Source of the DNA: a candidate division FCPU426 bacterium
GTDB taxonomy: Bacteria; Oederibacteriota; Muellerivitia; Muellerivitales; Muellerivitaceae
Reading direction: 5' to 3'
NCBI GenBank assembly: GCA_963796105.1
Contig: CAWCKJ010000010.1
Coordinates: 39,620-103,619 of the forward strand
DNA: 64,000 nt
Shown one piece after another: positions 9,084 to 61,618 of this stretch (position 1 is its first letter; the number at the start of each line of letters is the position of its first letter). A program made the position numbers and the translations under genes. The notes under the pieces are model-generated. The model searched no databases. It was not told where the DNA came from and saw nothing but the letters and a program-made list of their open reading frames with translations.

Positions 9084-9298
9084 AAATAAATCTATGCGGT
9101 GAGGTCTTAACCCAAACGGGGTGGGTTAACTTTGAAAAAGTTATTTGAAAAGTACTTTGCATTGCAAAGTAACTGTAGTTTCAATCAAAAACACAAATAA
9201 CCCGAGAATAAATATGTACTGTTATCCGTAAAAATCCGTATTATTCCCGGAATAAACCGAATCATCCAATCGCATCTTTTGTTATTATTGTTTAATCA

Positions 9299-11977: not shown

Positions 11978-13633
11978 GTACTACCTGAATTTTGCACCGA
12001 GTTTACCGATTCCGTGGCCAGATCGGCCTGAATCGGGACCCGACAGTGGCCATTTTCATCAGAAGTGAACTTATGTGCAAAGAATTTTTTGCACCAAGCC
12101 ACTTCTAGGCCGCCCTGGGTCTTTCCAATCGTTTTCGATCAAGGTATTTGAGGAAACCCAATAGGCCCGCTGTCCTATCATCATGGATTGAATACCTCAC
12201 CACATCCCGATGGCCGTGATACTGGATTCGGGCGGCTACAAAGAGCATCTTCAAACGTGCGATCCGAAGGGTATGGTCCGGCATGGTGATCTGTTCCTTC
12301 TCCTGTGGCTTCTTTCCCGGTCGCTTTTCTTTTCCACAATGGCCCACCATTAGTTTCATCCACCTCCAGAGGTTGTAAGCCAGCATCACGATCTGGAAAA
12401 AAGCATGGTGGCTTTGGAAACTCTTAGAGGGAATTGCTAATAACCCCTCCCGTTGCGCCTCACCAATCAGGTTTTCCACATCCGCGCGCAGGTCGTATTC
12501 CTCAACCACCCGATGGGGTGCTCCCAGACAGTTGGTCGCGAAGATTCGGTAGACATATCCTTCCATTTCAGGAAGGCTCAATTGTTTCTCCCGCGCTTTT
12601 TCATCCAGCGTCCTCATCGCCACAAACCGGACTGGTTGTTGCCAGCCTATGGGTTGATGGACACATTCGTTGTATTCGTGTTCTCCATGGCGGTACCAAC
12701 CCTTTTTCGTGAAAGGCGGGTCATGCCGCTTGTTCCCGAAGATGAAAGAAAACCCTTCTTTTTCACAGGCTTTCACGCTTTCCCAGCCGATCATTTCACC
12801 GTCACCGCGCACCAGAATCGTCCGGACACAGGACGGCAAGAGTCGCCGGAATTGTCTAATTTGGCGGGCCACTTCCTCAGAACTAAGGGTGGTTCCGCGT
12901 CTTTGGGTTCCGCACAAATATTCCCGGGTTTCCTGGAGAAAACACAGAATGGGCCTCAGTCCCTTCTTGCCCCGGTGCTTGGGGTTGTATCCTTTTCGGC
13001 TTCCCTCGATATTTCCGTAGACCGTTGCGGTGGTGGTATCGATGTTGATCTCCACCTTCTTGGGGGCATATTTCACCTGTCCCCAAACCTTGGCCCGTAA
13101 CGCCCCACTCAGATTCAGCAACGATGCCGACTGCCCGATCCCCAGCGACCTCAGGTATCTCCAAAAAGTTGTCACTACCGGCAACAAGGGAACCCGCAGT
13201 AAACCGCACAGCATGACCTCACCCCGCAGGTAGGCAAAATGGCCAAGTCTTTGGAACCCGATGAAAAGAAGCATTAGGATGCCGCTTACCATCCGGTAGT
13301 GGCCCAAATTCGGAAGGCGTTTAGGTGCGGCATAGTGTTTTTTGAATTCCCGCTCAAAATCAAGAAGGTCGAACATCTTCGCCAATGCCAACAATCCGCC
13401 AAAAGCTGTTAGGCGGTCTTCGCAAATACCTACGGGAGTATTGGCCGTAATCTTGGGCGCGATTCTCCCGTTTCGATTGGCTTTTTTCTGGACTTGCGGG
13501 TTTGATTTCTGAGGCGTATCTTGACGTTTCACCATCTGGGGGACCCTCTTTTAGGATGAGTTGGCTTCGCAACCCTTATCCTATAATGGTTTCCTAGATG
13601 GTTTTTTTATTAGGCGCAAAATTCAGGTACTAG
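11978..13633 (-). mobile_element. IS1380-family-like insertion sequence (transposase CDS 12105-13535, minus strand)
   Basis: 476-aa DDE transposase with an IS1380-like N-terminus (RLTAFGGLLALAKMFDLLDF). Imperfect ~20-bp terminal inverted repeats: gtactacctgaattttgcacc at 11978-11998 and ggcgcaaaattcaggtactag at 13613-13633. Confidence 0.55.
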
Positions 13634-14828: not shown

Positions 14829-16129
14829 TGGTGTGCGCCCCAAACCTTGGACAGTTTTTACTCCAAGTTGAGAATAGGTTTTCCGGCGATTGGTTTGAGT
14901 GACTTTAAAGCCTCGAACTCCTCAGGCGGCATGTAGCCGATAGAAGAATGCAACCGTTTTTTGTTATACACCTCCTCGATGAAGTATGGAAGTCTTTGAA
15001 GCACTTCCTGATAAGTTTCGTAATTGAATAGATGCACCTCCTCATATTTCAAGGTTTTGAAAAAGGATTCCGCATTTGCATTGTCGTAAGGGTTGCCTGT
15101 CCTGGACATGCTGATCCTTAATCCTTTGGACTCAAGCAGGGCCACGTAATCCCAGCAGGCATATTGCACCCCTCTGTCTGAATGGTGGATGCATCCCGGA
15201 AGAGGATTCCTTTCCTCTAAAGCCATGCGTAAAGCCGAAAGCGACAACTCCCGATCCAGTCTCTTGGAAACCGCCCACCCGATCACCTTTCTGGAAAAAC
15301 GATCCAGAATGGCCGCCAGATAAACAAAGCAAGTGAGGATTCGGATATAGGTAATATCCGCCACCCACACTTGATTGACAGCAGTTTCTGCCACCCTTTC
15401 CAAGAGGTTGGGGAACACCGGCAGGTCGTGATTGGATTGGGTGGTTTGGATCTTGAACCTTTTCCCCCAAATAATAGGGTAAAGACCGTATTTCCTTACC
15501 ACCCGCCGAATCCGTTTGGCGTTAATCCTTAATCCCTCCCGTAAAAAGTGGTGGTAGAGCCTCCGATAGCCGTAGTAGGGGAAGGTCAATCTCACCTGCT
15601 CGATTCGGTTCTTTAAGTCCAAATCTCTTTGTTCCTGAATCTCCGGTTCACTTTTAAGTGCAGAATAATAGGTACTTCGAGGAAGCCCCATCATTTGGCA
15701 TCCTCTTGAAATTGAGCCAAATTCCTTGAGGTGATCACGGAGGTATCGAGCTTTCTCTGGTTTTCCGCGTATTTTTGGAATTTTTTTAAAAGGTCTATCG
15801 CCATGATCAATTCCCCAATCTTGGCTTTGAGTTTCTCATTCTCTTTTTCCAATATTTTTTCGTGAAGGGAAGGTTTTTCAACCAAGGTTCCTTGGCGATA
15901 TTTATCGCGCCAACGGGTTATAACGCTTGGATTGAGCTGGTATTGACGAGCAGCTTCATTGAGCGATAGGCCAGTTTCTACCTCGTGGACGACTTGTTCT
16001 TTGAAATCAATACTGAACTTCCGTCTTATTTTACCCATTTGGAAATGCTCCTTTGGGGGGTTACCCCTTGAGCCGTTTCCCTATTCTCTATTTTTTGCTT
16101 CAACTGTCCAACTTGTAGGGCGCGTTCCA
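14829..16129 (-). mobile_element. IS3-family insertion sequence (orfA 15691-16038, orfB/rve integrase 14858-15694, minus strand)
   Basis: OrfA is an HTH transposase. OrfB has the DDE integrase core. orfA stop and orfB start overlap as ATGA. ~45-bp imperfect terminal inverted repeats begin TGGTGTGCGCCCC (14829) and TGGAACGCGCCCT (reverse complement, ending 16129). 3-bp direct duplication GAT at 14826-14828 and 16130-16132. Confidence 0.85.
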
Positions 16130-26222: not shown

Positions 26223-28139
26223 TTAAAGCTTAAAAGTTTTAACCGTATCGATCAAGGCGCGGACATTTTCCATGGGTGTCTCAGGCAGGATGCCGTGTCC
26301 CAGGTTGAAAATGTGTCCTGGCCTGCCGTTGACTTTCCTGAGTATTTTCTCGGCTTCTTTACGCACATTAAGAGGATCGGTTAAAAGAACTTCGGGGTCC
26401 AGATTACCCTGGATCGCCACCTCGCCCAATTGCTTCCAGGCCTTGGCCAAATCCACATGGCAATCCACGCCGATCACTGTGGCGCCGGTTTTAAGGATAT
26501 CTGGGTAGAAGGGTTCGGTATGAATTCCGAAATAAATAATGGGCACACCAGGCTTCAATCCGCTGATGAGGATTTGAAGGAAGGGAAGGACCAGGCGTTT
26601 GTATTCATCGGGGGTCAGGATGCCCACCCAGGAGTCGAACAATTGGAGGGCTTGGGCACCCGCATCCACCTGGGCGTTCAGGTAGGAAACAGTGGCCTTG
26701 ACGATCCGGATCATGAAATCATCCCAGGCCGATATGCCCTCGCTTAAAAGAGTTCGGGTCTGCGCGAAATCCTTGGAGGCCCCGCCTTCCAGCAAATAGG
26801 AGGCCACCGTGAAGGGGGCGCCGGCGAAGCCGATCAAGGGAATGTCGGGTTTTAAGCGGGACCGGATGATCCTCACGGCTTCCATGACATATCCCAAATC
26901 CTTCTTCGCGTTGACTTCCCGGAGGCGCTTGAGGTCGGAGGAGCCCCTGAAGGGATTGCGGATGACAGGCCCCCCTTTCTCGGCGAACTCCAATTGGAAA
27001 CCTAGGGGCTCGGTGATCAATAGAATATCGGCGAAAAGAATGGCGGCGTCCACGCCGAGGACTTCCTGGGCTGAAACCGTGGCTTCCGCGGCGAGCTCCG
27101 GCGTTTTGCAAAGCTCCAGGAAAGAGACTTTGGATCGTATTTTCTGGTATTCGGGAAGGTAGCGGCCAGCCTGTCGCATGATCCAAATGGGGGGGCGGTA
27201 GGCCGGCTCCCGGCGGCAGGCTTTCATGAAAAGATTATCCGGAATTCGGAAAGGTTTCTTGGGGGCGGCTGACACTTCCAAAGTCATGTGGCTCTTGAAC
27301 TCGTGCAGTTCCTGGCCCCTTCGAGCGGCTTCCCTCACGAGAGACGCCATGTTGTGCTGGTCCGGCTCGAAATCGACCGTGAATCCGTGGCCCTGGAGGG
27401 TTTCCGTGACGGAAGTGCCCACGGACCCGACCACCACGCGGGGGAAAGCCGCCATCAGGGATTCCAGGCGGCCTAGATTCTCCGCGAGTTGAACCAGGTT
27501 GTGGACCTGATACCCGCTGGTAAAGAGGGTGATCGCGACTTTGCCCTTGATGATGGATTCGATCAACTGGACCAGGGGTTTGGTGTTGTCGGGCAGGGCC
27601 CAGAGCTGGATGGGAACACTTTCCACTTCTTTCGCGCCCAATGCGCGGAGATTCCTCAACAAGTCCAAATTGGAAAAACCGAATTCCTGGACCGCCACCC
27701 TTTTGTCTTTCACGTCCGCGAGCGCGGAGGGAATTTCCCTCCAGTTTTTCAGCTCTGGAATTTTGATGGAAGCCTTTAATCCGTATTCAGCCAAAACCTT
27801 GGGGAGGTGGGGGTCGCAGGACACCAGGACACAGCGTTTGAGGGCCTTGGTGATATGACTCTGGGGAAACTGGGCCTCCAAGGCCTGGAAAAAAGCGCGT
27901 GTGCCGGTTTCGGAAACGAGAACCAGGATGTCAATGAGCCCTTCCCGGAGACGCTCAAAGAAGACGTATGCTTCCTTGTTTTCCTCCGGATGCATTTCCC
28001 TCATGGCGGGGGCAATCAAGGGTTTGCCGCCGTGATGGAGGATCAAATCCTCCATTTCCTTGGCCATGAGGCTCTCGAAAGCCGCCACTGTCAAGTTCCT
28101 AAAATTGTGCTTTTCTTTGGATTGGGACGGTCGCGTCAT
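26223..28139 (-). CDS. hemDE: bifunctional uroporphyrinogen-III synthase (HemD) / uroporphyrinogen decarboxylase (HemE) fusion protein
   Basis: C-terminal half carries the URO-D signature PPIWIMRQAGRYLPEY. N-terminal ~260 aa shows the two-lobed HEM4 pattern (DILVLVSETGTRAFF ... ITLFTSGYQVHNLV ... VVGSVGTSVTETL). Single uninterrupted reading frame. Start trimmed to ATG at 28139. Confidence 0.7.
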   Translation of the reverse strand: MTRPSQSKEKHNFRNLTVAAFESLMAKEMEDLILHHGGKPLIAPAMREMHPEENKEAYVFFERLREGLIDILVLVSETGTRAFFQALEAQFPQSHITKALKRCVLVSCDPHLPKVLAEYGLKASIKIPELKNWREIPSALADVKDKRVAVQEFGFSNLDLLRNLRALGAKEVESVPIQLWALPDNTKPLVQLIESIIKGKVAITLFTSGYQVHNLVQLAENLGRLESLMAAFPRVVVGSVGTSVTETLQGHGFTVDFEPDQHNMASLVREAARRGQELHEFKSHMTLEVSAAPKKPFRIPDNLFMKACRREPAYRPPIWIMRQAGRYLPEYQKIRSKVSFLELCKTPELAAEATVSAQEVLGVDAAILFADILLITEPLGFQLEFAEKGGPVIRNPFRGSSDLKRLREVNAKKDLGYVMEAVRIIRSRLKPDIPLIGFAGAPFTVASYLLEGGASKDFAQTRTLLSEGISAWDDFMIRIVKATVSYLNAQVDAGAQALQLFDSWVGILTPDEYKRLVLPFLQILISGLKPGVPIIYFGIHTEPFYPDILKTGATVIGVDCHVDLAKAWKQLGEVAIQGNLDPEVLLTDPLNVRKEAEKILRKVNGRPGHIFNLGHGILPETPMENVRALIDTVKTFKL

Positions 28140-28257
28140 GAAATGCAGTATAAAAGTGAAAAAAATGAAAATCCACATAAGCTTAGTGCGGGTATAATAG
28201 AAACAGGCTTGGTCATACGGGTCAAAGTCGTCATTTTTACAAACCAGCCGTATAGAG

Positions 28258-29619
28258 GTGAATATGAAGTGTCCTGGCTGCGGCTTTGAGCAGGCGGATG
28301 GGCGCATCGATTGCGACCGTTGCGGCCTGGTCTTTGAGAAATGGCATCAAAGGCATCCGGACCCGGTTCCCGCGGCGGAGAATCCGCCAGCTGCGACCGA
28401 AGGGACCCCAGCCCCTGCGGCACCCACTCCTCCGAAGCCCGTTCCCGTGGAACCTGCGGCGAAGCCAGAGCCTGTTACCGCTCCCGTGCCCGAGAAAAAG
28501 CCGTCGAGCCCTATCCCCGCTGAGAAAAAAGAGGAAAAGCCGGCCGTTGCGATATCCACGCAAACTCCCGAACCTAAGATATCCGCGCCCCCTGTAATTA
28601 TTCCTGAACCCGAATTTGAAAGTGAACCGTTTACCCCGTCGGCGCGTCAATCTCATTCGGGAATGAACAAAAGGATCATTTCTTATCTCGGGGTAGGAGT
28701 TGTACTGGCCATACTCATATTCATTGTCTCGAATTACCTCATCACGGAAAACGGAAAGCAGGGACCCCGCTGCCTAGTAACTTGGGGCGAGAACGGGGAA
28801 GACCAGGGGCAAATGGACTCGCCGATCGCGGCGGCTGTGGACCAGGACCGAAACCTATACGTTTCAGACCAGGGCAACAACCGGATCCAGAAATTCGATT
28901 CCAACGGAAAATTCCTTCTCTCCTGGGGAGGGTCCGGGACGGCAGCCGGAAAATTCAATAATCCGGTCCAATTGGCCGTGGATACGAAAAATTTCGTTTA
29001 CGTCGTGGATGGCGGCAACCACCGCGTGCAGAAATTCGACTTGAACGGGGTTTACCAGACGGTCTGGGGCGGATTCGGCTCCGACCCCGGCCAGTTCAAC
29101 CAGCCCTGGGGTTTGGCGATCAGCCTGAAGGACCAGATTTACGTGACGGATCAAAACAACCACCGAGTGGAGGAGTTCGACGCGGACGGGAAATGGATCA
29201 AGACCTGGGGCACCAATGGAAAGGACCAGGGTAATTTTATCCAGCCGCGCGGGATCGCGGTGGACGCGGACGGGAACGTTTATGTGGGGGACAACAACGA
29301 GAGGATCCAAAAGTTTGACGCCAATGGGACCTTTGTCGAGCAGACCGGGAGTTTCGGGCAGGAGCCGGGACAATTCCACAAAATCCAGGGTTTGGCCGCG
29401 GATAAAACCGGGCGCCTATACGTGGCTGACGGCGGGAATTACCGGGTCCAGGTTTTTGACGCCCAATTGAAACCCTTGACCGCCTGGGGGCATTTAGGCG
29501 AGAAGCCGGGGTTCTTCAACTTTCCCGGCGGAATCGCGGTGGACTCGAGCGGGTTCATCTATGTCACGGATTATCAAAACGACAGGGTCCAGAAGTTCGC
29601 TGAACTCGTCATCAAATAG
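28258..29619 (+). CDS. NHL-repeat beta-propeller protein with N-terminal double zinc ribbon, Pro-rich linker and one TM helix
   Basis: CPGCGFEQADGRIDCDRCG zinc ribbon. PAPAAPTPPKPVPVEP linker. TM segment GVGVVLAILIFIV. At least 6 NHL repeats (NNRIQKFDSNGKF, NHRVQKFDLNG, NHRVEEFDADG, NERIQKFDANG, NYRVQVFD, NDRVQKF). Confidence 0.75.
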   Translation: MNMKCPGCGFEQADGRIDCDRCGLVFEKWHQRHPDPVPAAENPPAATEGTPAPAAPTPPKPVPVEPAAKPEPVTAPVPEKKPSSPIPAEKKEEKPAVAISTQTPEPKISAPPVIIPEPEFESEPFTPSARQSHSGMNKRIISYLGVGVVLAILIFIVSNYLITENGKQGPRCLVTWGENGEDQGQMDSPIAAAVDQDRNLYVSDQGNNRIQKFDSNGKFLLSWGGSGTAAGKFNNPVQLAVDTKNFVYVVDGGNHRVQKFDLNGVYQTVWGGFGSDPGQFNQPWGLAISLKDQIYVTDQNNHRVEEFDADGKWIKTWGTNGKDQGNFIQPRGIAVDADGNVYVGDNNERIQKFDANGTFVEQTGSFGQEPGQFHKIQGLAADKTGRLYVADGGNYRVQVFDAQLKPLTAWGHLGEKPGFFNFPGGIAVDSSGFIYVTDYQNDRVQKFAELVIK

Positions 29620-37665: not shown

Positions 37666-38223
37666 ATGATTAGCGTGAACGATCTCAGGTCTGGGAATCT
37701 TTGTGAATTCGATGGAACGCTTTATAGGGTCGTGAACTATCAACACGTAAAGCCGGGCAAGGGCGGGGGATTTGTCCGTCTTAAACTGAAAAATGTGGAG
37801 TTAGGGACTGTTACTGATAAAACCTTGGATAGTTGGGAAAAAGTACCGGAACCTCCAGTTGAAGAAAAGGAAATGCAATACTTGTATAAGCAGGGAGACA
37901 AATTTGTCTTCATGGACACTGGAACTTATGAGCAACTTGAGTTAACCGACGATGAGGTTGGTGAGGGAGCCCAATGGTTGAAAGAAGAAACCTCAATTGA
38001 AGTTCTTTTTTACAATGGCCGCCCCATCAGCGTGAAATTGCCCATCACGATCAACCTAAAAATCATTTCCTCCGAGCCCGGAATTAAAGGAGACAGGGTC
38101 TCCGGGGCCAGTAAGCCCGCCACTTTGGAAAGCGGAGCCACCATCCAGGTTCCCCTTTTTGTCAATGAAGGAGACGTCATTAAAGTCGATACTCGAACAG
38201 GGGAATATCTGGAGCGGGTTTAA
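37666..38223 (+). CDS. efp: elongation factor P
   Basis: Typical EF-P sequence (ISVNDLRSGN...KPGKGGGFVRLKLKNVELG). 185 aa. Confidence 0.95.
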   Translation: MISVNDLRSGNLCEFDGTLYRVVNYQHVKPGKGGGFVRLKLKNVELGTVTDKTLDSWEKVPEPPVEEKEMQYLYKQGDKFVFMDTGTYEQLELTDDEVGEGAQWLKEETSIEVLFYNGRPISVKLPITINLKIISSEPGIKGDRVSGASKPATLESGATIQVPLFVNEGDVIKVDTRTGEYLERV

Positions 38224-38234
38224 ACCCTTAACGT

Positions 38235-38834
38235 TTGAAGGCTGTGTCGTTGAATGGAAAGGAGCGTTATATGCCGACAGTTTCTGAAAATGAAGAAAGC
38301 CCCAAACCGGAAAAAAAGAAAAAAAGCTCCGGCTCGTCCAAAAGAATCAAAGTTAACCCCAAGCTTACAATTGTCCAGGATGTCATCCAGCTCATGAATG
38401 AGGCGCAGGTTAATGAACTGCATTTTGAGCAAGGAGGAGTCAAAATCCATCTCCGCAAGGGAAATGGGCCCTCATTTGAAACCTTCAAGGTGGACGGAAC
38501 AGGAGCCACTGGTCAACCCTCTGAGACCAATACAGCGTTGGATCAGCAGCTTCCGGGCCAAGCCGGATCCCCGCAAGCCCAGAAAACGGATTCGACCATG
38601 ACGATCAAATCACCTATGGTTGGAACTTTTTACCGCTCCTCCGCCCCCGAAGCCAAGGCTTTTATAGAGGAAGGCGACAAGATCGAAGTGGGGCAGGTTT
38701 ATTGCATTATCGAGGCCATGAAACTCATGAATGAGGTAAAAGCCGAAATGGCTGGAAAAGTCGTCAAAATACTCGCCCAAAATGGGCAGGCTGTTGAGTT
38801 CAACCAGCCGCTTATCAACATTGATCCCAGCTAA
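38235..38834 (+). CDS. accB: acetyl-CoA carboxylase biotin carboxyl carrier protein
   Basis: Ala/Pro-rich linker and biotinyl domain with the EAMKLMNE biotin-attachment motif. Alternative start ATG at 38271. Confidence 0.9.
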   Translation: MKAVSLNGKERYMPTVSENEESPKPEKKKKSSGSSKRIKVNPKLTIVQDVIQLMNEAQVNELHFEQGGVKIHLRKGNGPSFETFKVDGTGATGQPSETNTALDQQLPGQAGSPQAQKTDSTMTIKSPMVGTFYRSSAPEAKAFIEEGDKIEVGQVYCIIEAMKLMNEVKAEMAGKVVKILAQNGQAVEFNQPLINIDPS

Positions 38835-38900: not shown

Positions 38901-40271
38901 GTGTTTAACAAGATATTAATCGCAAACCGAGGGGAAATCGCTCTTCGGATCATCCGCGCTTGCAAAGAAATGGGAATCAAGACCGTTTCTGTCCATTCGG
39001 AACCTGACGCCGATTCCCTGCATGTTCACCTGGCCGATGAAAGCGTTTGTATCGGCCGGGGTCCCAGCCGGGAAAGCTACCTTAACATCCCTGCGTTAAT
39101 CAGCGCCGCTGAAATAACCGATGCCGAAGCCATTCATCCGGGATATGGTTTTCTTTCGGAGAATGCGCACTTCGCGGAAGTATGCGCCAGCTGCCAGATT
39201 AAATTCATCGGGCCGAAACCCGAAGTCATGCGCCTCATGGGCGATAAAGTAGCCGCCATTAAAACGGCGAAAAAGGCCGGGATTCCTACGACGCCTGGTA
39301 GCGACGGAGCGGTAAAGGACGAGAAGCAAGCCTTGGAAATCGCCCGCCTCATCAAATATCCGGTCATTATCAAGGCTGCCGCGGGAGGCGGGGGAAAGGG
39401 CATGAGAATCGCACACACTGATCTTTCCCTGGCCCAGGGTTTCCAAACAGCTAGAACCGAGGCTGAAGCGGCATTTGGAAACCCCGATGTTTACATTGAA
39501 AAATATGTTGAAGAGCCCCGCCACATCGAGGTCCAAATATTGGGGGATGAATTCGGTCACATCATCCATCTGGGAGAAAGGGATTGCACCATCCAAAGAT
39601 CGCATCAGAAATTAATTGAAGAGGCCCCTTCTCCTGTCATCAACGCGCGTCAAAGGAAAAAATTAGGGAAGTTAGCCCTGAAATTAGCCAAGCATGTTAA
39701 TTATTCCTCCGCTGGCACGATTGAGTTTTTGATGGACAAAGAGGGCCATTTTTATTTCATGGAAATGAATACCCGGGTCCAAGTGGAGCACCCCGTGACT
39801 GAGTTGATCATGGGAGTTGACCTGATCCAGGAGCAAATCCGGATTGCCTCCGGCGAAAGACTTTCAGTCGATAAGGATGTTCTCCAACCCAGGGGTCACG
39901 CGATCGAGTGCCGCATCAACGCCGAAAATCCGGAGGACGGATTTAAACCCTCTCCGGGAACGATTACAACTTTCCACATGCCCGGAGGCCCAGGGGTCCG
40001 GGTCGACACGCACCTGTACCAGGGGTATAAAGTTCCGCCGTTTTATGATTCCATGCTGGGAAAACTGATCGTTCACGCACCGACCCGATCCGAAGCCATA
40101 CGGAGGATGATGCGGGTCCTGGATGAATTGGTAGTCGAGGGAATTCACACAACCAGTGGATTTCTTAAAAAAATCCTGGAAAGCGAGACATTTAGGCGAG
40201 GGGACTATTCCACGCATTTTGTTGAGAAATTCTTGAAAAATATTAGGGGAGAAGAAAGTTCGAAAAAATAG
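38901..40271 (+). CDS. accC: acetyl-CoA carboxylase biotin carboxylase subunit
   Basis: [27 protein letters not shown]-terminus. ATP-grasp and biotin carboxylase C-domain motifs. efp-accB-accC synteny. Confidence 0.95.
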
Positions 40272-40332
40272 TTTGTCGCGTTGAGCTGGGGAAATCAAAC
40301 CAACCGATTTATCGCGAAATGGAGATTCAGAA

Positions 40333-41388
40333 TTGAAAATAACAGTTTATTTTGATCCGAAAGATGTCAAGACGTCAGTTGCCCAAAATGCCACCGTGGT
40401 TTTGGCGGATGTCCTGAGAGTCTCAACGACAATCCCGGTATATCTTTACCATGGTGCAAAAGGGGTCGTTTTATGCCAAGACCCCGGGTCAGCAAAAAAA
40501 CAGTTTGAAAAATTAAAGAGGGGCGAGGGCCTTTTAGCCGGGGAAAGGGATTGGGAAAAAATCCCGGGCTTTCATATGGGCGGGTCTCCCCTGGAATCCA
40601 CCCGCGATAAAGTCAAAAATCGGATTGTATGTATGAGCTCCTTCACCCCCCTGCGGTTACTTCAGGAGGCCAAACATTTGGTATTGGGCTCATTCGTGAA
40701 TTTGACAGATGTTTATGATTCCTGTTTGCGGGCAAAACGTGATGTGGTGATCGTGTGCGCGGGCGGACCGGAAGATTCCGCCTTTGCTGGAATGCTGGTT
40801 GATTTTCTCCAAAGCACCTTAGGAGGAACACCTGTGGTTTTGGCCAAGAGCGCGAAAGACACAATTAGCTTATATAAGCCATGGCAAGGGAGATTATGGG
40901 AATTGTTAAATTCAACGCCGGATGGGAAAGGGTTGACGCTCAAGGGGTTCGCGAAAGACCTGGATTTTTGCTCGAGGTTAAACAGGATTTCAGCCGTGCC
41001 TTTATTTCAAGGCAATTTTTTTATTAAGGAAGACGCTCCGAAACCGAAAAAAACCATGGAGGCGGATGGAAAGCCTAAACCCACTTCAGCGTCTCCAAAA
41101 AAGGGAAAATCAATCAAGGTCATGGTTCCTTTGTTCCCTAAAAATCCCGAACACCCTGTTCCGGGCATCGATAAGGCCGGAGGCAAGAAGGGGCAAAATC
41201 CGGCGGATGCTAAGAAAAAAGATCAGGCCTTTTCGAAAAAGGCCCCCCTGAAGACTATAGAAAACAATCAAAAGGCCAAAAAGGCAAATGGAAAGTCGGT
41301 TCCTTTGTTCACTAAAAAATCAACGGCTACAACCGCGAAAAAAATTTCCGCCAAGCCGGTCATTAAAACCCATGGGAAGAAAAAATAG
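40333..41388 (+). CDS. ComB-family 2-phosphosulfolactate phosphatase-like protein with ~130-aa lysine-rich C-terminal tail
   Basis: The N-terminal 220 aa align well to ComB/YitC (VVLADVLRVSTT, YLYHGAKGV, LAGER, GFHMGGSPLEST). The C-terminus is low-complexity K/P/A-rich with the repeated segment VPLFPKNPE / VPLFTKKST. Confidence 0.7.
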   Translation: MKITVYFDPKDVKTSVAQNATVVLADVLRVSTTIPVYLYHGAKGVVLCQDPGSAKKQFEKLKRGEGLLAGERDWEKIPGFHMGGSPLESTRDKVKNRIVCMSSFTPLRLLQEAKHLVLGSFVNLTDVYDSCLRAKRDVVIVCAGGPEDSAFAGMLVDFLQSTLGGTPVVLAKSAKDTISLYKPWQGRLWELLNSTPDGKGLTLKGFAKDLDFCSRLNRISAVPLFQGNFFIKEDAPKPKKTMEADGKPKPTSASPKKGKSIKVMVPLFPKNPEHPVPGIDKAGGKKGQNPADAKKKDQAFSKKAPLKTIENNQKAKKANGKSVPLFTKKSTATTAKKISAKPVIKTHGKKK

Positions 41389-41391
41389 TAT

Positions 41392-41832
41392 TTGGGTTTG
41401 GGGGAGTCTGTGAAATCTTTCAATCGCCCCGTTCTCATGTTGAGAGCTTTGGACGCGAATTGCAATCGTGTTCGGGAAGGTTTAAGGGTTGCGGAAGATG
41501 TGGCCCGGTTTATCCTGAATGATTCCCGCCTTATTTCCCAATTGAAAAAACTCAGGCATGAAGTAACCGCAGTGGAGAAAACTCTTTTTATTTCAAATAG
41601 GATCAGGATCGAGGCTCGAAATGTTAAGGAGGATTTGGGCCGTAAAAATCACCTTGAGACCGAGAAGACCCGCGCTAATCTTAAAGACCTCTTGACGGCG
41701 AACTTGAAGCGCTCCCAAGAGGGCCTTCGGTCGCTTGAGGAATTTTCGAAAGCATTAGGGCATCCTTCCGCGTTAAAATTCAAAAAAATCCGTTATGCGT
41801 GTTACCAAATCGAAGAGTCTCTCCCCAGTTAA
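41392..41832 (+). CDS. hypothetical protein (predicted all-helical, coiled-coil)
   Basis: 146-aa ORF starting 4 nt after the ComB-like stop. No motif recognised. Confidence 0.4.
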   Translation: MGLGESVKSFNRPVLMLRALDANCNRVREGLRVAEDVARFILNDSRLISQLKKLRHEVTAVEKTLFISNRIRIEARNVKEDLGRKNHLETEKTRANLKDLLTANLKRSQEGLRSLEEFSKALGHPSALKFKKIRYACYQIEESLPS

Positions 41833-41902: not shown

Positions 41903-43780
<1,878 letters not shown>

Positions 43781-43781
43781 T

Positions 43782-43820
43782 AAAAAAGGCCTCGCCGATT
43801 AAGGCAAAGCCTTTTTTTAT
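43782..43820. terminator. putative bidirectional intrinsic terminator between thiC (+) and ferredoxin (-)
   Basis: AAAAAAGGC ... GCCTTTTTTT are complementary arms flanked by A and T runs. The loop is large, so the structure is only moderately convincing. Confidence 0.45.
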
Positions 43821-51683: not shown

Positions 51684-52784
51684 ATGAGTTTTTTTTCAAA
51701 AGGTGTTGTTGGTTTAGACATCGGAACTTCAAGTGTTAAGGTTGTTCAATTAAAACAAAATGCTGGCCAGTGGCGACTAGTTTCTATGGGAATTTCCGAA
51801 TTGCCGAAGGAAGTGCAGGAAAATGCCAATCAGGGAGCTTCGAAAAACATAATAATCGACTCCATAAAAAAACTCTTTAAAGAGAGCGGCATAAGTACAA
51901 AAAAAGTGGTGACTGCTTTATCGGGTGATTCGGTCATAATTCGCTATGTAAAACTACCTTTTATGACTAATGAGGAATTGAAGGCGGCGATTCCGAGGGA
52001 AGCGGAACAATATATCCCGCTAAACTTGGATCAGGTTGTTCTTGATTTTCAGATTTTGGGTGAAACCCAGGAAGATGGACAAAAAAAATTAGACGTATTA
52101 TTAGTTGCCGCGAAGGTTGATGTGGTTGATCAACATTTATCCCTTTTGAAATCAATTGGGTTGACGCCTTCTATTATTGATGTGGATGCGTTTGCTTTGG
52201 AAAATGCATATGAAATAAATCGAACTGAGCAGGGAGAAGAGACAATCGCTTTAATTAATCTAGGCGCATCTTTGACGACCATCAATATACTTGAGGGAAA
52301 AAATACCAGGTTTACACGTGATATTCCAGTTGCCGGAAATGATTTTACCAAAGAAATTCAAAAGGAGTTTAATTTAAAGTTTTCTGAAGCTGAAGAGCTA
52401 AAAAAGTCGCATGGCGCAATTTCCATGGAGGAAGATGATTTTAATTTATCTGCAATTACTCAAAAAGATGATCGGGTTTTGAGAATGTCAGATGTAATGA
52501 CTCCGGTGTTAAACAAACTTTTGGGCGAAATTCGACGTTCATTTGATTATTACGAAACACAATCCCGGAAGAAAACAGTTGAGCGGGTTATCCTTTTAGG
52601 GGGGAGCGCGAAATTAAAAAATGTGAATAGGTTTTTAGCGAGCAAGTTAGGCATCCCAGTAGAGAATTTCTCCGCTTTTAGGAACATCGAGGTTGGTAAA
52701 AACATTGACTCGGAACAACTATCTGAAAAAGAGGTTTATATGGGGGTCTGTTTGGGCTTAGCACTTCGGCAAACGGAATCTTAA
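51684..52784 (+). CDS. pilM: type IV pilus assembly protein PilM (actin-like ATPase fold)
   Basis: N-terminal VVGLDIGTSSVKVVQL and C-terminal ILLGGSAKL actin-fold motifs. Position upstream of pilNOPQ. Confidence 0.85.
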   Translation: MSFFSKGVVGLDIGTSSVKVVQLKQNAGQWRLVSMGISELPKEVQENANQGASKNIIIDSIKKLFKESGISTKKVVTALSGDSVIIRYVKLPFMTNEELKAAIPREAEQYIPLNLDQVVLDFQILGETQEDGQKKLDVLLVAAKVDVVDQHLSLLKSIGLTPSIIDVDAFALENAYEINRTEQGEETIALINLGASLTTINILEGKNTRFTRDIPVAGNDFTKEIQKEFNLKFSEAEELKKSHGAISMEEDDFNLSAITQKDDRVLRMSDVMTPVLNKLLGEIRRSFDYYETQSRKKTVERVILLGGSAKLKNVNRFLASKLGIPVENFSAFRNIEVGKNIDSEQLSEKEVYMGVCLGLALRQTES

Positions 52785-52787
52785 TAC

Positions 52788-53342
52788 ATGATAAGAATAA
52801 ATCTAATACCGGTTAAGGAAAAGAAGAAACGTAGAGAATTATTCATTGTTTTCTGCGTTGTGATTGTATTGGTTTTGATAGCTTTTGGTATGGCTTGGGT
52901 TTATGGTTCGCGTATGAGCGAGAAAAATAATCTCAATAAAAAGATTAAACAAGTTGAGGATGAATCGAAGGAATATGAGGAAAAAATAAACGAAGAGAAA
53001 GACCTCGAGGCCAAAGAAGCCAGTTTGGAAACATTTAAAAAGACTGTAAAAGGAGTGACGGATACACAAAGAAAAGTTCTGGTTGCCATGGATCAATTAG
53101 CTTTAAACCTTCCGGAAGGGGTTTGGCTTACTAAGGTGAGTCAAGGTCGTGATAAAGATAGTGATTTATACACTGTCGAGGGGTATTCTTATTCTGCGCA
53201 CGACTTGCAAATTTACTTGAATTCCCTCCGAAAACCAGGCGGGATGTTCAAAGATGTTCAGCTTATAACCACAGATAATATTTTATCTCTCGCTGGTAAT
53301 AAATTCAAAATAACTACAAGAGTTATGGATACCAACTCATGA
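52788..53342 (+). CDS. pilN: type IV pilus assembly protein PilN
   Basis: INLIP N-terminus (MIRINLIP), single TM, coiled-coil. Synteny. Confidence 0.7.
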   Translation: MIRINLIPVKEKKKRRELFIVFCVVIVLVLIAFGMAWVYGSRMSEKNNLNKKIKQVEDESKEYEEKINEEKDLEAKEASLETFKKTVKGVTDTQRKVLVAMDQLALNLPEGVWLTKVSQGRDKDSDLYTVEGYSYSAHDLQIYLNSLRKPGGMFKDVQLITTDNILSLAGNKFKITTRVMDTNS

Positions 53343-53884
53343 AAATCACTCCTTTACAGCAATATATAATATTGGGTGTAGTGTTTTTCGCTGGGTTAGT
53401 ATTTTTGTATTATCAATTTCTTCTAAAACCTTTGAATTCAGATATCGTGAATTTAAGAACAACTTTGGAACAAAAACAAAAAGATTTAGAAGAAGCTAAG
53501 AAAATCGTGGCTAAATATGTTGAGTTTAAAAAGCGCGCGGATTCTGTTCAAAGAGAATTGGAATACATTCAAAATAGAATCCCGAAAACAATTGACAGGG
53601 CGAAATTGATGGAGATGGTAAATTTAATCCAAGACAGGACAAGAATTGTGTTAACTAATTTTTCTTTTTCAGGAAGTCCAACATCGAAAGATTCTTGGGT
53701 GGAAATTCCAATAAAGTTATCATTCAATTCGAGTTTTAAAGGATTATTGGAATTTTTATATCAAATTAACATTTCGAATTTACTTATGATAGTTAGGGAT
53801 GTGAATATTTCCTCGCAGCTAGATCCGCTTGGAATTTATACTTTAAAAGCGGATTTGATATTAAACGGGATTCAAGCGAAATGA
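53339..53884 (+). CDS. pilO: type IV pilus assembly protein PilO
   Basis: Single N-terminal TM, coiled-coil, C-terminal ferredoxin-like domain. Synteny. Confidence 0.65.
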   Translation: MKITPLQQYIILGVVFFAGLVFLYYQFLLKPLNSDIVNLRTTLEQKQKDLEEAKKIVAKYVEFKKRADSVQRELEYIQNRIPKTIDRAKLMEMVNLIQDRTRIVLTNFSFSGSPTSKDSWVEIPIKLSFNSSFKGLLEFLYQINISNLLMIVRDVNISSQLDPLGIYTLKADLILNGIQAK

Positions 53885-54339
53885 AAATTCAAACAAAATC
53901 GAATAAAAAGATTCTTTTATTCGCCATTTTTGGAATAGGTATAACCGCGCAATATTCCGCCTTGTGCCAGCAACAAGACGTCCCGGAACCGGTTTTCATG
54001 AATTTTTCTATTCAATCTCCTTATATTCCGACTTATCATGGTCGAGATCCCTTTTACCCATTGCAACCCTATTCGTATGATATTTCTAAAAAAGTATCAA
54101 TCGCCGATTTGGATTATCGGGGGATATTAAGTTTAGGTGACAAGGATATGGCTTTATTCTCTTGGAAGCACGATGGCAATTACAGATTCTTATTAAAATC
54201 CAGAAAATTGTATTGTAGTTCAAACAGTACAAAAAGTTCAAACGAACAGGTTGTTGATGGTATTGTGGGGGACATTACTGGCACCGAAGTTGTTTTAATA
54301 CAGGGCGAGCAAAAGATTGTTTTTTCCAGAAGAAAATAA
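53881..54339 (+). CDS. pilP: type IV pilus assembly protein PilP (putative, lipoprotein-like)
   Basis: Signal peptide and small beta domain. Position between pilO and pilQ. Confidence 0.45.
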   Translation: MKIQTKSNKKILLFAIFGIGITAQYSALCQQQDVPEPVFMNFSIQSPYIPTYHGRDPFYPLQPYSYDISKKVSIADLDYRGILSLGDKDMALFSWKHDGNYRFLLKSRKLYCSSNSTKSSNEQVVDGIVGDITGTEVVLIQGEQKIVFSRRK

Positions 54340-56752
54340 AGGAGTTTTATTAATGCCAAGAAAACGCAAGAAAACGGGAACGATTTTATTTTTTGCTTTG
54401 ATGTTCCTCATGCCGTGTTTTCTTTTGTGGGCAGGTGATGCCATAGAAATTGATTTAAGTAATGAATCTTCAACATCGAAACCCACTCCAACGCAGGTTG
54501 CGGTCAACAAAATTCCTCCAAACCAAACTAAAACAAATCTTAAAAACACGGAAAGCCAATTAACAGCGGTTTCTGCGCGCAATAAAACAAAATCAATTAT
54601 AAACAAAGTTGAAATTAAGGCGGAGGGAGAACAGACCACTCTTCTTATAAAAGGAGAAGGTCTTGTCAATAAACCCGAGGTGAAAATTATTTCTAAAACC
54701 AAAATATTGGTAACTTTTGCGAATGCGAAACTACATTTACCCAAAAAAATCACCGAGAATAAAAATCGCATAAAAACAATAAGATCTGATGCTCACGGGA
54801 AATCAGCATGGATTGTTATTGACGCCAATGGGATTAAATCCGCGACTGCAGAAAAATCCGATGATGGGTTTGCGGTTATTTTGAACGCGGGAAGTAATAC
54901 TGAAATGGACGGAAAGCTTTTGGGAAAATCCGGGTTGAACAACGAATCCACCCCAACCGCACCTTCTTTGGAAAAAAGAATATTCTCCCGTTTGACGGAT
55001 TTTTCGATAAAGCCGAGCGATAAAGGGATAAAAGTTGTATTGACTTCCGACGGCCCGGCCAAATACAACATTAGAAAAATTGGCCAACCCGAAAGATTGG
55101 TTGTATGGTTCCACAATACGAAACTAGATGTTTCTGCAAAAGAGAAAATATATAAAAACGATGATTTGGAATTGAAAAAAGGGGGATTAATTTCGATCGC
55201 GTTGCGGCAAATAGGGAAAGGGTTTTCGCCCATATCAGACGTTACTTTAATGTTGATTCCCGGAACAGTCTACAAAGTCGATCGAGATTTAAATCAAGTA
55301 GTCATTTCCTTGACTTCGCCCCCTCCTTCTGAAAAATCAAGTGAAACTGAAAAAAACGCAGAAAGAAAAGGGAACTTAAACCAATTGGTTTCTATGGATA
55401 TTGAATCGGCAGATTTATCCACTGTTTTAAAAAATATAGCTATTGAGTCTGGCTTCAGTAATGTCGATTTTGTGGGAGGCGCGATATTTGGTGTTGTAAA
55501 CGAGAAGTTTAAGGATGTCCCTTTGAAAACCGCTCTGGCTATTTTATTGACGCCGGGAAATTATGATTATGAAGTTCAAGGCAATACGTTGAGAGTAGGG
55601 CCGATAGCATCTCTGAGGGCTACTAAGAGTATCATGCCACATGTAACGGAAATCTTAAGTCCCTCCGGGGGGATGAATCTCGGGCAGTTTGATAGCTTGG
55701 TAAAATCCATTCTAAAGCCAACCAACGCAATCCAAACCAGCCCTGACTCAGTCCGCAATGTATTGGTTTTAAATGGAACGGTTTCTGATATTGAAGAATA
55801 CAAGCGAGCCATAAAGGATTTAAAACTCGATGAAAACACATCCGGTGATAGAATCACGCGAGTTGTAAAATTGAATTATGCTGATCCAACGCAAATGATA
55901 CTTATTTTAAGCGCTTATTTGACTCCTGTGGGCAAAGTGCAGCAAGATCCGCGGACAAACGATCTGGTGATATGGGAAGTCGCAAGCAATATGGGGGTGC
56001 TTTTAGAGTTGATCAAGGAAATTGATGTTAAATCGCCTCAAGTGTTACTCGAAACAAACATGGTAGAAGTTCAAGATGAAAAAGATTTAAATCTTGGAGT
56101 TGATTTAGCTTTAACAAGACAAGTTGGCGATCCGCAAATAAATGCGAATTACGTTAACCCGGCAACTAATAATCCTGGATTTTTCGGGATCCAAACGCTT
56201 CGAAGCGGTATTAATCTCAGTGCTCAATTGTCGGCTGCGGAAGCCAGGAAAAAAGCGAAAATCATCTCAAGGCCCAGAGTTGCCACGGCCAACGGAGTCG
56301 CCGCGGAGATTGACACTGTCGAGAATGTCGTCATTGAAAATACTACACAAACCATCAACCAAAATGTCATAACTTATCAAACTAATTTTACACAATTGCC
56401 GTTGCCGATAAATTTAAAGGTAACACCTCGAATCACGGACGATGGAAGAATAACCACCAATATGGCTGTGACAGTAACTTCTCAAACAGGACCAGTCGTG
56501 GTTGCTCCTCAAACTGGGGCTCAGGGACCCCCGCCAACAAGCGTTCAGGACACCAATACTACGATTACAACAAAAAATGGCGAAACTATTGTTATCGGTG
56601 GTCTTGTGCGTTACACGGTTCAGGATTCCATGAGTGGAATTCCTCTTTTATCAAGCTTGCCAATTATTGGCACTCTCTTCCAGAATAGGACTTATACCAA
56701 TCAGAAAGTTGAATTGGTGATATTTATTACTCCCACCTTGCTGGAAGATTAA
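54317..56752 (+). CDS. pilQ: type IV pilus secretin PilQ
   Basis: C-terminal secretin domain (IVIGGLVRYTVQDSMSGIPLLSSLPIIGTLF...VELVIFITPTLL). N-terminal AMIN-like repeats and N0/N1 domains. Likely start at ATG 54353. Confidence 0.85.
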   Translation: MFFPEENKGVLLMPRKRKKTGTILFFALMFLMPCFLLWAGDAIEIDLSNESSTSKPTPTQVAVNKIPPNQTKTNLKNTESQLTAVSARNKTKSIINKVEIKAEGEQTTLLIKGEGLVNKPEVKIISKTKILVTFANAKLHLPKKITENKNRIKTIRSDAHGKSAWIVIDANGIKSATAEKSDDGFAVILNAGSNTEMDGKLLGKSGLNNESTPTAPSLEKRIFSRLTDFSIKPSDKGIKVVLTSDGPAKYNIRKIGQPERLVVWFHNTKLDVSAKEKIYKNDDLELKKGGLISIALRQIGKGFSPISDVTLMLIPGTVYKVDRDLNQVVISLTSPPPSEKSSETEKNAERKGNLNQLVSMDIESADLSTVLKNIAIESGFSNVDFVGGAIFGVVNEKFKDVPLKTALAILLTPGNYDYEVQGNTLRVGPIASLRATKSIMPHVTEILSPSGGMNLGQFDSLVKSILKPTNAIQTSPDSVRNVLVLNGTVSDIEEYKRAIKDLKLDENTSGDRITRVVKLNYADPTQMILILSAYLTPVGKVQQDPRTNDLVIWEVASNMGVLLELIKEIDVKSPQVLLETNMVEVQDEKDLNLGVDLALTRQVGDPQINANYVNPATNNPGFFGIQTLRSGINLSAQLSAAEARKKAKIISRPRVATANGVAAEIDTVENVVIENTTQTINQNVITYQTNFTQLPLPINLKVTPRITDDGRITTNMAVTVTSQTGPVVVAPQTGAQGPPPTSVQDTNTTITTKNGETIVIGGLVRYTVQDSMSGIPLLSSLPIIGTLFQNRTYTNQKVELVIFITPTLLED

Positions 56753-59918: not shown

Positions 59919-61214
59919 ATGCCCAAGGACTCCCATACGTCGGAAATAAACGAACTTAAAAAAAAGATGGAAGAAAACCCGGATTCATTGGTATTTGCTC
60001 TTTTAGCAGATGCTTACCGCAAAGAAGGCGATTTAGTTCAAGCGCAAGAAATTTGTCAAAAGGGCCTCCAAAAACATCCCAACCATACAATTGCTAAAAT
60101 CGTGTTAGGCAGGATATTCCAGGGCCAAAATAAAGTTGACGATGCGTCGCTGGAATATAAACAAGTCCTTGAAGCGGATCCGGAAAATATTATGGCTCAT
60201 TCTCTTCTTGGCTCACTTCACGTCCAAAAAAAAGAATATCAAGAAGCTATTGAGGAATTCCAAAAAGTATTAACGCTGAATCCAGATGATGAGGAGGCTC
60301 CAATTGCGTTAAAGGAAGCAATCGAGAGAGCGGCGATTGAACAGCAAAATAACATTAAAACCTCCAATAAAGAAGCCGCCCAAACCAACGTGAAAAATCC
60401 AACGAAAGAAAGTAATGCCACAATAACCTTGGCAGAGCTTTACATTAAGCAAAATCATTTTGATAAGGCGATCGAGGTCTTTCAAGAGCTTTTGGCTAAT
60501 GATCCTCAAAATCTTATGCTCCGACAAAAGCTTTCGGATGCCGTTGAAAGACACCAAAAAGATTCCGCCGTAGGGCCTATAGTGACTAAGCTTAAAAAAA
60601 ATGAATTCACCCAACCGCCGGATCATAAAGAGGATGTTTTGGTAGAAGAACAAAAATCCGAGACTAAAAAGTATCCGAAGAAAAAGGAAGATGATTCTAA
60701 GTTTACAAATGAGGATATCCTACAAGTCATGCGACGTGGCGGCAAAGATGACATTATGGAGGAAGAAAAGACCATTCCGAGTATGAAGAAAAAAGATGAC
60801 CTTATGCCCGTCTCTCAAGAGGGGGCGGAAAAAAATACTAACCCTAAATGGAATGCCAAAAATAATGTTGAATTAAAGAGCATTTTGGGGGAACTGGGAA
60901 GCGTTGATGGAATCATCGATTGCTTTTTAATAGATTTGAATGGAAATCTCGTTGTTTCAACGGATGAATCAGGTAATAATGCTGTTTTGGGAAAACAAAT
61001 AAATACTATATTTGATAGTATCACTAAATCCGTTAATAAGTTAAATCAAGGGAATTCGCAGCAAATATTAATAACCTCTGACTCCGGGCACATACAGTTG
61101 GTCTCTTTTCCAGAGTTGATATTAATTGTATTGACCAATAACAAAATAAATTTGGGTTTTTTGAGGCTAACTTTAGATTCGGTCCGAAAGAAAATGGAAA
61201 AAGTAATAAAGTAG
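59919..61214 (+). CDS. TPR-repeat protein with C-terminal Roadblock/LC7 (MglB-like) domain
   Basis: N-terminal ~200 aa of TPR repeats, a K/E-rich linker, and C-terminal ~110 aa with the Roadblock pattern (GIIDCFLIDLNGNLVVST...ILITSDSGHIQLVSFPELILIVLTN). Confidence 0.6.
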   Translation: MPKDSHTSEINELKKKMEENPDSLVFALLADAYRKEGDLVQAQEICQKGLQKHPNHTIAKIVLGRIFQGQNKVDDASLEYKQVLEADPENIMAHSLLGSLHVQKKEYQEAIEEFQKVLTLNPDDEEAPIALKEAIERAAIEQQNNIKTSNKEAAQTNVKNPTKESNATITLAELYIKQNHFDKAIEVFQELLANDPQNLMLRQKLSDAVERHQKDSAVGPIVTKLKKNEFTQPPDHKEDVLVEEQKSETKKYPKKKEDDSKFTNEDILQVMRRGGKDDIMEEEKTIPSMKKKDDLMPVSQEGAEKNTNPKWNAKNNVELKSILGELGSVDGIIDCFLIDLNGNLVVSTDESGNNAVLGKQINTIFDSITKSVNKLNQGNSQQILITSDSGHIQLVSFPELILIVLTNNKINLGFLRLTLDSVRKKMEKVIK

Positions 61215-61258
61215 AATATTTTTCAAAATTTAAAAAGGGTTTAAATTAAGGTTTAAAA

Positions 61259-61618
61259 ATGGATTTTAAAAAAATATTAGAGGAAACAATTTTGAGCGTC
61301 GAAGGCGCCATTGGCGCTGGATTGGTAGGCATGGATGGAATAGTCATCGATCAAATCTCCAAAAATTCAACATTTGACATCAACGCGGTGGGCGCGGAAT
61401 ATTCAAGCATTATTAAAAACGCCTTGAAGGCTTCCTCGAATTTCGGTTTGGGAAACACTACTGAAATATTGATTACGACTGATAAGGCAACCATGATCAT
61501 GATGATGGTAGGCCAGAATTATTTCATTACCTTGGCCCTTAACCTGGATGGAAATTTAGGAAGAGGCCGGCTGGAGTTAAAGAAATCCATCCCCAAGTTT
61601 GAAAAAGAGTTAACCTAA
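61259..61618 (+). CDS. Roadblock/LC7-domain protein (MglB-like)
   Basis: 119 aa. VEGAIGAGLVGMDGIVID ... ILITTDKATMIMMMVGQNYFITLAL matches the Roadblock/LC7 fold pattern. Confidence 0.6.
   Translation: MDFKKILEETILSVEGAIGAGLVGMDGIVIDQISKNSTFDINAVGAEYSSIIKNALKASSNFGLGNTTEILITTDKATMIMMMVGQNYFITLALNLDGNLGRGRLELKKSIPKFEKELT

Follow-up and report, generated by a model that had tools for sequence, protein, structure and literature searches.

Two lysine-rich tails in candidate phylum FCPU426: an H1-like extension on a DksA-like protein and a motif-bearing extension on a ComB-like protein

The window analysed here is a 64,000-nt stretch of contig CAWCKJ010000010.1 (GC 47.8%, about 55 genes) from an uncultured soil bacterium of the candidate phylum FCPU426, and two of its unrelated proteins carry lysine-rich tails: a ComB-like protein at its C terminus and a DksA-like zinc-finger protein at its N terminus. 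An initial annotation, made from the sequence alone, had pointed out both tails. Homologues, AlphaFold2 (AF2) models and composition bear this out, in that the tails are real, lineage-specific, disordered and polycationic, in a window proteome with a lysine share of 7.4%. The two genes and their parts are as follows.

40333-41388, plus strand: ComB-like (PF04029) gene with a C-terminal extension, 351 amino acids (aa); TTG start, with GGAG at 40321-40324, 9 nt upstream
40333-41028, plus strand: ComB-like catalytic-fold domain, residues 1-232 (Pfam, AF2, tail-less PDB relatives)
41029-41100, plus strand: spacer a, residues 233-256, variable and K/P-rich (mean pairwise identity 0.38; predicted local distance difference test score, pLDDT, <50)
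41101-41166, plus strand: motif 1, residues 257-278, KGKSIKVMVPLFPKNPEHPVPG, family consensus KGKSIKVxVPLFPKNPEHPxPG
41124-41144, plus strand: copy 1 of a 21-nt direct repeat, encoding VPLFPK (20/21 identical to copy 2)
41167-41292, plus strand: spacer b, residues 279-320, a length-variable Lys-rich polyampholyte (identity 0.28 over 172 alignment columns)
41293-41328, plus strand: motif 2, residues 321-332, KSVPLFTKKSTA, family consensus KP(M/L)FSKKTVA
41298-41318, plus strand: copy 2 of the 21-nt direct repeat, encoding VPLFTK (in frame with copy 1, 174 nt apart)
41329-41388, plus strand: basic C-terminal end, residues 333-351, with final KKK, and the stop codon (alignments)
256-741, minus strand: DksA-like gene, 161 aa (zinc-finger match; homologues)
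604-741, minus strand: Lys-rich disordered tail of the DksA-like protein, residues 1-46 (composition; AF2)
259-603, minus strand: DksA core, comprising coiled coil 47-82 and 93-124, tip and four-Cys zinc finger (Pfam, alignment, AF2)

The enzyme domain of the ComB-like protein matches PF04029 (2-phosphosulpholactate phosphatase) over residues 8-226 in a Pfam scan (E = 7e-41; 140.3 bits against a cut-off of 26.4), a full-length family match that covers profile positions 3-224 of 226, and its PDB relatives 2yyv, 1vr0 and 2z0j (E = 1e-11 to 2e-20) have no tail. AF2, given a 91-sequence alignment, models the protein with pLDDT >95 up to about residue 235. Positions that are invariant in the family, for example D26, G70, R91, N123, D137 and D148, are retained in comparison with tail-less relatives, as are the DVLR and GER motifs, and the tailed clade has GGSP where its relatives have GNSP (N replaced by G). 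Under the NCBIfam equivalog test for ComB (EC 3.1.3.71) the best score was 120.7 bits against a cut-off of 330, with 64 against 175 for TIGR00298; the protein thus belongs to a divergent subfamily, and its substrate should not be assumed.

The tail that follows had been described as about 130 residues of K/P/A/G-rich low complexity. It spans 119 residues (233-351; 33 K per 120 residues, net +23), and the compositional part of that description stands (27% K, 12% P, 11% A, 7% G, with 7% D+E; the acidic share across the family has a median of 11%), but the tail also holds two near-invariant motifs. In alignments of 28 and of 91 sequences the tail is a mosaic of conserved motifs and variable spacers rather than plain low complexity: motif 1 has a mean pairwise identity of 0.90 and motif 2 one of 0.67, the corresponding values being 0.65 in the catalytic domain and 0.24-0.38 in the spacers and C-terminal end. 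Conservation reaches at least 89% at 18 of the 22 positions of motif 1 and at least 90% at each of F326, K328, K329, T330 and A332 of motif 2, and even the most divergent family members carry both motifs. These have a P-(L/M)-F-x-K core in common, and the internal repeat that had been noticed in the tail is genuine: VPLF(P/T)K is present in two copies, the 21-nt direct repeat behind them is identical at 20 of 21 positions, and both copies fall in motifs that are conserved among homologues. Within spacer b, the KK pairs at 285/286, 294/295, 302/303 and 316/317 are 80-93% conserved, and homologues show (D/E)KK-type repeats there. The window protein also contains one SPKK, at which homologues have APQK, so that this element is not conserved. 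AF2 gives residues 240-351 no secondary structure (pLDDT 42-62), with a small local rise at both motifs, to about 60 at motif 1, as would be expected of conditionally folding segments. In a deeper-branching, high-GC clade of longer proteins (406-470 aa; P0074-P0089, loci L025-L027), motif 2 is followed by a third conserved motif, A(T/M)DALKAALSK, which is probably helical, and then by a longer, truly K/A/P-rich end.

Motif 1 is a signature of this one family. A profile Hidden Markov Model (HMM) of the motif, searched against 1.84 billion representative proteins, returned 10 matches, all of them ComB-like proteins or fragments thereof. The motif was absent from viral contigs (IMG/VR) and from the remainder of the window, and other proteins in 26 related loci lacked it as well, save for a lone PLFPK pentapeptide in an unrelated open reading frame (ORF) of locus L023; against the PDB, the profile gave chance-level matches only (E >= 0.6). 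Three genes upstream, the C terminus of EF-P (38134-38151) has IQVPLF, resembling the motif-1 core IKVMVPLF; apart from this gene and the ComB-like one, no real gene of the window encodes VPLF, and the likeness is probably due to chance. Pfam searches with either tail at E values up to 10 returned no significant family, histone-like ones included, and only weak chance-level matches.

The DksA-like protein is organized differently. Its residues 125-159 match the zinc finger zf-dksA_traR (PF01258; E = 1e-13, 51.4 bits against a cut-off of 24.9), and the zinc-finger cysteines C130, C133, C151 and C154 are invariant among aligned homologues. AF2 predicts helices 47-82 and 93-124, joined by loop 83-92, as an antiparallel coiled coil, at whose tip (PGDMADHG) D87 and D90 are invariant and G takes the place of the final A of DxxDxA. 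DksA-like NCBIfam models align over residues 54-159 with scores below their equivalog cut-offs (68 bits against 105 for NF033459, 62 against 115.5 for TIGR02420), which marks the protein as a divergent family member. In front of this core, the Lys-rich tail is present as claimed, although at about 41-46 residues it is shorter than the 55 first given, with the first helix starting at residue 47 and family models aligning from 54; residues 1-37 have pLDDT <50. It consists of 34% K, 22% A, 12% P and 22% S+T, has no D/E, and carries a net charge of +15 over residues 1-41.

Nearly all of the 120 DksA-like homologues among the matches listed are 154-175 aa long, and a Lys-rich N terminus is found in 20 of the 20 aligned. 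Across a 21-row alignment of homologues, one row of which has a spurious upstream extension, the tail is 34-53 aa long with 26-43% K, 0-5% acidic residues and a net charge of +12 to +19, and its sequence is conserved only at the initial MAxSKKK and the junction KKx(R/K)(I/V)xP. Tandem SPKK, PAKKA or KPAA repeats are absent from it, with merely degenerate APK triplets present. The composition of this tail is under selection and its sequence is not. The histone-H1-like label, taken to mean a disordered, K/A/P-dominated segment with almost no acidic residues, therefore suits the DksA tail by composition, and does not suit the ComB tail, with its 7-11% acidic residues and hydrophobic/Pro-rich conserved cores.

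Both tails are confirmed as real coding sequence and are not frame errors. Between the window ComB tail and its closest homologue, codons differ 30, 21 and 63 times at positions 1, 2 and 3, respectively, an excess at third positions that indicates purifying selection in the annotated frame; the five other frames hold stops or sequence without relatives. Across loci with 46-65% GC, 26-40 lysines are retained in the tail and K/(K+R) lies at 0.82-1.0, AAA being replaced by AAG, and the persistence of lysine at 60-65% GC through AAG codons points to selection on lysine rather than to A-rich DNA. The DksA N terminus holds 15 K in 40 residues, whereas 200 whole-proteome shuffles never yielded more than 13. 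An artefact, such as the frameshift in A-rich DNA raised at the outset, or a neutral low-complexity expansion would be the alternative, and two observations lean that way: the tail DNA contains A runs of 6-7 bases, and in one short homologue (P0078, 292 aa) the position of motif 1 is occupied by out-of-frame sequence (TRIGSTAKREIHQSDGPSFPEEPRTS...) that does not resemble the conserved tail, probably owing to an assembly indel in such an A run. We consider this explanation essentially refuted and exceedingly improbable, given that about 90 homologues and 26 species keep the ComB-tail frame, that changes in the tail fall mostly at third positions, that AAG codons maintain lysine in high-GC loci, and that motif 1 is conserved beyond the enzyme domain. 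Tandem Repeats Finder detected no DNA tandem repeat under either tail apart from a trivial 17-nt one, and an origin of the tails by recent slippage or tandem repetition was rejected on this ground.

Both tails are specific to the candidate phylum FCPU426. A scan of GTDB species genomes located the ComB-like gene in 26 species. Candidate division FCPU426 is the name given to about half of these, and the others bear generic names (such as uncultured bacterium or uncultured proteobacterium). In public data, protein P0001 is 100% identical to the window protein, and about 90 homologues measure 310-470 aa. A search with a profile of the ComB domain alone recovered more than 6,000 relatives, and those listed split sharply into tailed proteins of 310-470 aa at 46-100% identity and tail-less ones of 247-248 aa at about 30% identity. 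The nearest tail-less relatives among the matches listed, one of which is labelled Gemmatimonadaceae by NCBI, lie in a genomic context that resembles the neighbourhood of the window gene:

38271-38360, plus strand: N-terminal extension of AccB (BCCP), about 30 aa, with the Lys run PEKKKKSSGSSKRIKVNP (comparison with other AccB)
38901-40271, plus strand: accC (biotin carboxylase), directly upstream of the comB-like gene (family match, neighbourhood comparison)
41392-41832, plus strand: ThiD2-family gene, directly downstream (the public gene call starts at about 41410)
41921-43780, plus strand: thiC, following the ThiD2 gene

The order efp-accB-accC-comB-ThiD2-thiC is conserved in the FCPU426 loci recovered, and three tail-less comB genes (L028 3646-5747, L030 2645-4747 and L031 2646-4747) likewise follow accC immediately, their start overlapping its stop, and have accB upstream. 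The initial annotation had proposed a comparison with tail-less orthologues; as tail-less relatives occupy the same context, the tail would be a later addition, made once the two lineages had parted and when the gene already stood beside accC. The adjacency in both groups suggests a functional link of biotin carboxylase with this ComB subfamily. The Lys run of AccB (PEKKKK...KRIKVNP) is kept in FCPU426 loci and is missing from the AccB of the tail-less clade with the Gemmatimonadaceae label. The literature searched contained nothing relevant on tailed ComB proteins, on ComB beside biotin carboxylase or on the ThiD2 family. A thiamine pyrophosphate (TPP) riboswitch that would tie comB and the ThiD2 gene to the regulation of thiC was considered and rejected, the Rfam matches being two tRNAs only.

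This neighbourhood raises the possibility that the ComB tail serves its own complex, with motifs that bind the ComB domain (of the same chain or of another subunit) or AccB, AccC or ThiD2 and so regulate activity or assembly. The shared accC-comB adjacency, the gain of a Lys-rich extension by AccB of the same operon in the same lineage, the start of the ThiD2 gene within 4-22 nt of the end of comB, and the absence of terminator-like sites between efp and thiC (one occurs after thiC, at 43801-43813) all agree with it. The AF2 monomer, however, leaves the motifs undocked on the ComB domain, and synteny inside one phylum may be mere inheritance; we hold this explanation to be unlikely.

We lean, if only slightly, towards a reading in which the two tails are independently acquired, FCPU426-specific disordered polycationic extensions that work differently, the one on DksA as a generic H1-like DNA tether and the one on the ComB-like protein as a motif-bearing docking tether. 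In the DksA-like protein, residues 1-40/46 would bind DNA non-specifically through charge and hold a factor of the RNA-polymerase secondary channel on the nucleoid, coupling the factor to DNA. By analogy, DNA binding is the most likely role of this tail, and the first description of the tails as DNA- or RNA-binding modules has here a studied counterpart in DdbA, which binds and condenses DNA (PMC3643593). The motif pattern of the ComB tail points instead to specific docking and away from DNA coating. Its 119 residues would form a flexible tether bearing two short linear motifs separated by length-variable Lys-rich spacers; the motifs would dock, possibly bivalently, onto one specific, conserved, putative partner, the spacers may contribute weak affinity for polyanions, and motifs and spacers together would localize or scaffold the enzyme. 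Partner docking follows from the combination of a disordered variable spacer, near-invariant hydrophobic/Pro-rich peptides and exclusivity to one family, and the motifs are most likely a specific docking element, not a generic DNA-coating tail. Candidate targets are AccB, AccC, ThiD2, the protein's own oligomer, nucleic acid, membrane and polyphosphate (polyP).

Several points weigh against this two-tether reading. AF2 docked the ComB motifs nowhere with confidence (pLDDT ~60), and a purely electrostatic role of the whole ComB tail is possible. DdbA is only an analogue, with a longer tail (93-138 aa) and (S/T)(A/T)AKK repeats of which the FCPU426 DksA has none. Lineage-specific Lys-rich extensions are found on three of the roughly 55 window proteins (ComB-like, DksA and AccB), and each of their Lys runs closes with [KR]x[ILV][KR][IV]x(1-2)P, a pattern matched 5 times in the window proteome where shuffles gave 0.9 +/- 0.9; the ending could be an element common to all three after all. 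The pattern was defined post hoc, after the data had been seen, and we record it as unexplained and not as evidence. Its instances are:

601-621, minus strand: KRLKIDP, DksA residues 41-47
38340-38360, plus strand: KRIKVNP, AccB
41107-41130, plus strand: KSIKVMVP, ComB-like protein

With the AccB patch as a third case, the lineage seems prone to acquiring Lys-rich extensions, and this observation also bears on the proposal of the initial annotation that the tails are interchangeable, H1/Hc1-like nucleic-acid-binding modules spread by lineage-specific shuffling, with the ComB-like protein moonlighting on the nucleoid. Its appeal lies in two Lys-rich, disordered and lineage-specific tails joined by a third patch on AccB, in the recurrent Lys-run ending, and in the truly K/A/P-rich far C terminus of the deeper-branching ComB clade; Lys-rich low-complexity tails are, besides, documented on unrelated DNA-binding proteins of one lineage (PMC3553676). 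Shuffling nevertheless finds little room in the data, and we regard it as improbable: the ComB and DksA tails show no significant mutual similarity (BLASTP E = 1.6), and motif 1 occurs in no family other than the ComB-like clade among the 1.84 billion representatives, which together argue against a common module. The acidic residues of the ComB tail, the hydrophobic/Pro-rich rather than basic nature of its most constrained parts, the lack of DNA tandem repeats that would betray recent spread or slippage and the lack of any significant Pfam family on the tails count against it too. A nucleoid-associated moonlighting role of the ComB-like protein is possible, if without specific support.

The recurring ending also admits a more speculative construction, a phylum-specific docking system in which extensions of the form K-x-hydrophobic-K/R-hydrophobic-x-P, elaborated in the ComB-like protein as PLFPKNPEHP/PMFSKK, would recruit DksA and the accB-accC-comB products to one scaffold, be it the nucleoid, polyP or a hub protein. 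We consider this a long shot; if true, it would amount to a bacterial localization code of short linear motifs that has not previously been described.

Somewhat less of a long shot, yet still quite unlikely in our judgement, is that the ComB tail targets another polyanionic surface, either an anionic membrane, through MARCKS-like insertion of Lys and Phe or a terminal amphipathic helix, or polyP granules in the manner of AlgP. Phe, Leu and Met are scattered among its Lys clusters; VATAVVKMIKK, the C terminus of many homologues, has a modestly raised helical hydrophobic moment (0.62 against a shuffle mean of 0.44 +/- 0.13); and the H1-like AlgP associates with polyP granules (PMC9239181). The C terminus of the window protein, by contrast, gives no amphipathic signal (0.46 against 0.48 +/- 0.11) and no helix in AF2, and the near-invariance of motif 1 over 22 residues exceeds what binding to lipid or polyP should need. 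A C-terminal amphipathic membrane helix, considered with MinD and FtsA reference peptides, was set aside as unsupported in the window protein and marginal in homologues.

Elsewhere in the window, a 300-nt direct repeat with 95% identity (7434-7733 and 8636-8935) reflects duplication of the 3' part of a GH44 + CBM11 glycoside hydrolase gene (5767-7884) in a 145-aa ORF (8652-9089). A DDE transposase (PF13701/PF01609) lies at 12105-13535 on the minus strand, and an overlapping pair of minus-strand ORFs (15691-16038 and 14858-15694) looks like an IS3-type orfA/orfB, by arrangement rather than by family scan; the two would be mobile elements in an otherwise housekeeping region. At 26223-28307 on the minus strand, a single 694-aa ORF fuses HemD (uroporphyrinogen-III synthase, 84-324) and HemE (uroporphyrinogen decarboxylase, 357-691). 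The type IV pilus genes pilM, pilN and the secretin gene pilQ (51684-56752) stand upstream of a tetratricopeptide repeat (TPR) protein at 59919-61618, which has a K/E-rich linker and a C terminus matching a Roadblock/LC7-like (MAPKK1_Int) profile, and which is followed by a stand-alone Robl_LC7 gene, a 279-aa gene with no assigned family and DivIC.

Among known systems, the architecture of the ComB tail resembles that of the C-terminal linker and peptide of FtsZ and of the tail of SSB, where a hydrophobic/basic peptide, short and highly conserved, is held out to partners on a flexible spacer of variable length. Few conserved short linear motifs are known from disordered regions of bacterial proteins, and those that are usually mark important hubs, the FtsZ and SSB tails among them. 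The [IV]-P-x-F-x-[KR]-[KN] of the ComB motifs loosely recalls the FtsZ C-terminal peptide, and the P-(L/M)-F core likewise recalls the clamp-binding QLxLF; we take both to be resemblances only and give them low weight. All solved members of the ComB family (1vr0, 2yyv, 2z0j) and most database members differ from the FCPU426 protein in being 227-248 aa long and tail-less, and the literature searched held no description of a ComB-like motif-bearing tail.

Lys-rich tails on bacterial proteins are already known. PAKKA/KPAA tails occur on mycobacterial Hlp/HupB and Ku, on Deinococcus HU and on Pseudomonas AlgP and PhaF (PMC3553676, PMC9239181), and such low-complexity tails have been proposed to arise repeatedly on unrelated DNA-binding proteins (PMC3553676). 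Tethering to polyanions is exemplified by AlgP on polyP granules and by PhaF, which links polyhydroxyalkanoate (PHA) granules to DNA (PMC9239181). The FCPU426 tails resemble these as terminal, disordered, lineage-specific K/A/P-rich additions to otherwise ordinary proteins. The known cases, however, consist of tandem repeats, and the proteins bearing them are DNA or granule binders already. The FCPU426 DksA tail, by contrast, is non-repetitive, and the ComB tail belongs to the homologue of a metabolic enzyme, includes acidic residues and has as its dominant feature two conserved motifs that are not basic. With chlamydial Hc1/Hc2 and the C-terminal domain of eukaryotic H1, the DksA tail has in common that about one-third of it is Lys, accompanied by Ala, Pro, Ser and Thr and by no acidic residues; neither tail has sequence or profile similarity to them (Pfam, E up to 10), and Hc1/Hc2 are stand-alone nucleoid proteins.

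The novelty of the ComB tail is that of a cationic tether with short motifs, attached to the homologue of a metabolic enzyme; the case is unusual in that the 22-residue motif is more conserved than the catalytic fold and is found nowhere else in public protein space. The organism is uncultured and the mechanism inferential, which limits the payoff, and the identity of the partner could reveal how FCPU426 organizes an enzyme linked to acetyl-CoA carboxylase genes. For the DksA tail, the nearest known system is DdbA (SCO2075) of Streptomyces coelicolor, in which an H1-like N-terminal domain is fused to a DksA-like C-terminal domain; its N-terminal part alone shifts and condenses plasmid DNA in vitro, and mutant phenotypes concern nucleoid condensation and supercoiling (PMC3643593). 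The two proteins agree in the order of their parts, a Lys-rich H1-like N terminus followed by a DksA core whose tip has two aspartates and whose zinc finger has four Cys. They differ in the length of the extension (93 aa, or 138 aa in the construct used, against 41-46 aa in FCPU426), in the (S/T)(A/T)AKK pentapeptide repeats of DdbA, where FCPU426 DksA has merely degenerate (P/S)APK, and in phylum. As the N-terminal half of DdbA is called streptomycete-specific (PMC3643593), common descent is unlikely and the FCPU426 DksA tail is most likely convergent with it, making this an independent second example, in an uncultured phylum, of DksA joined to an H1-like tail.

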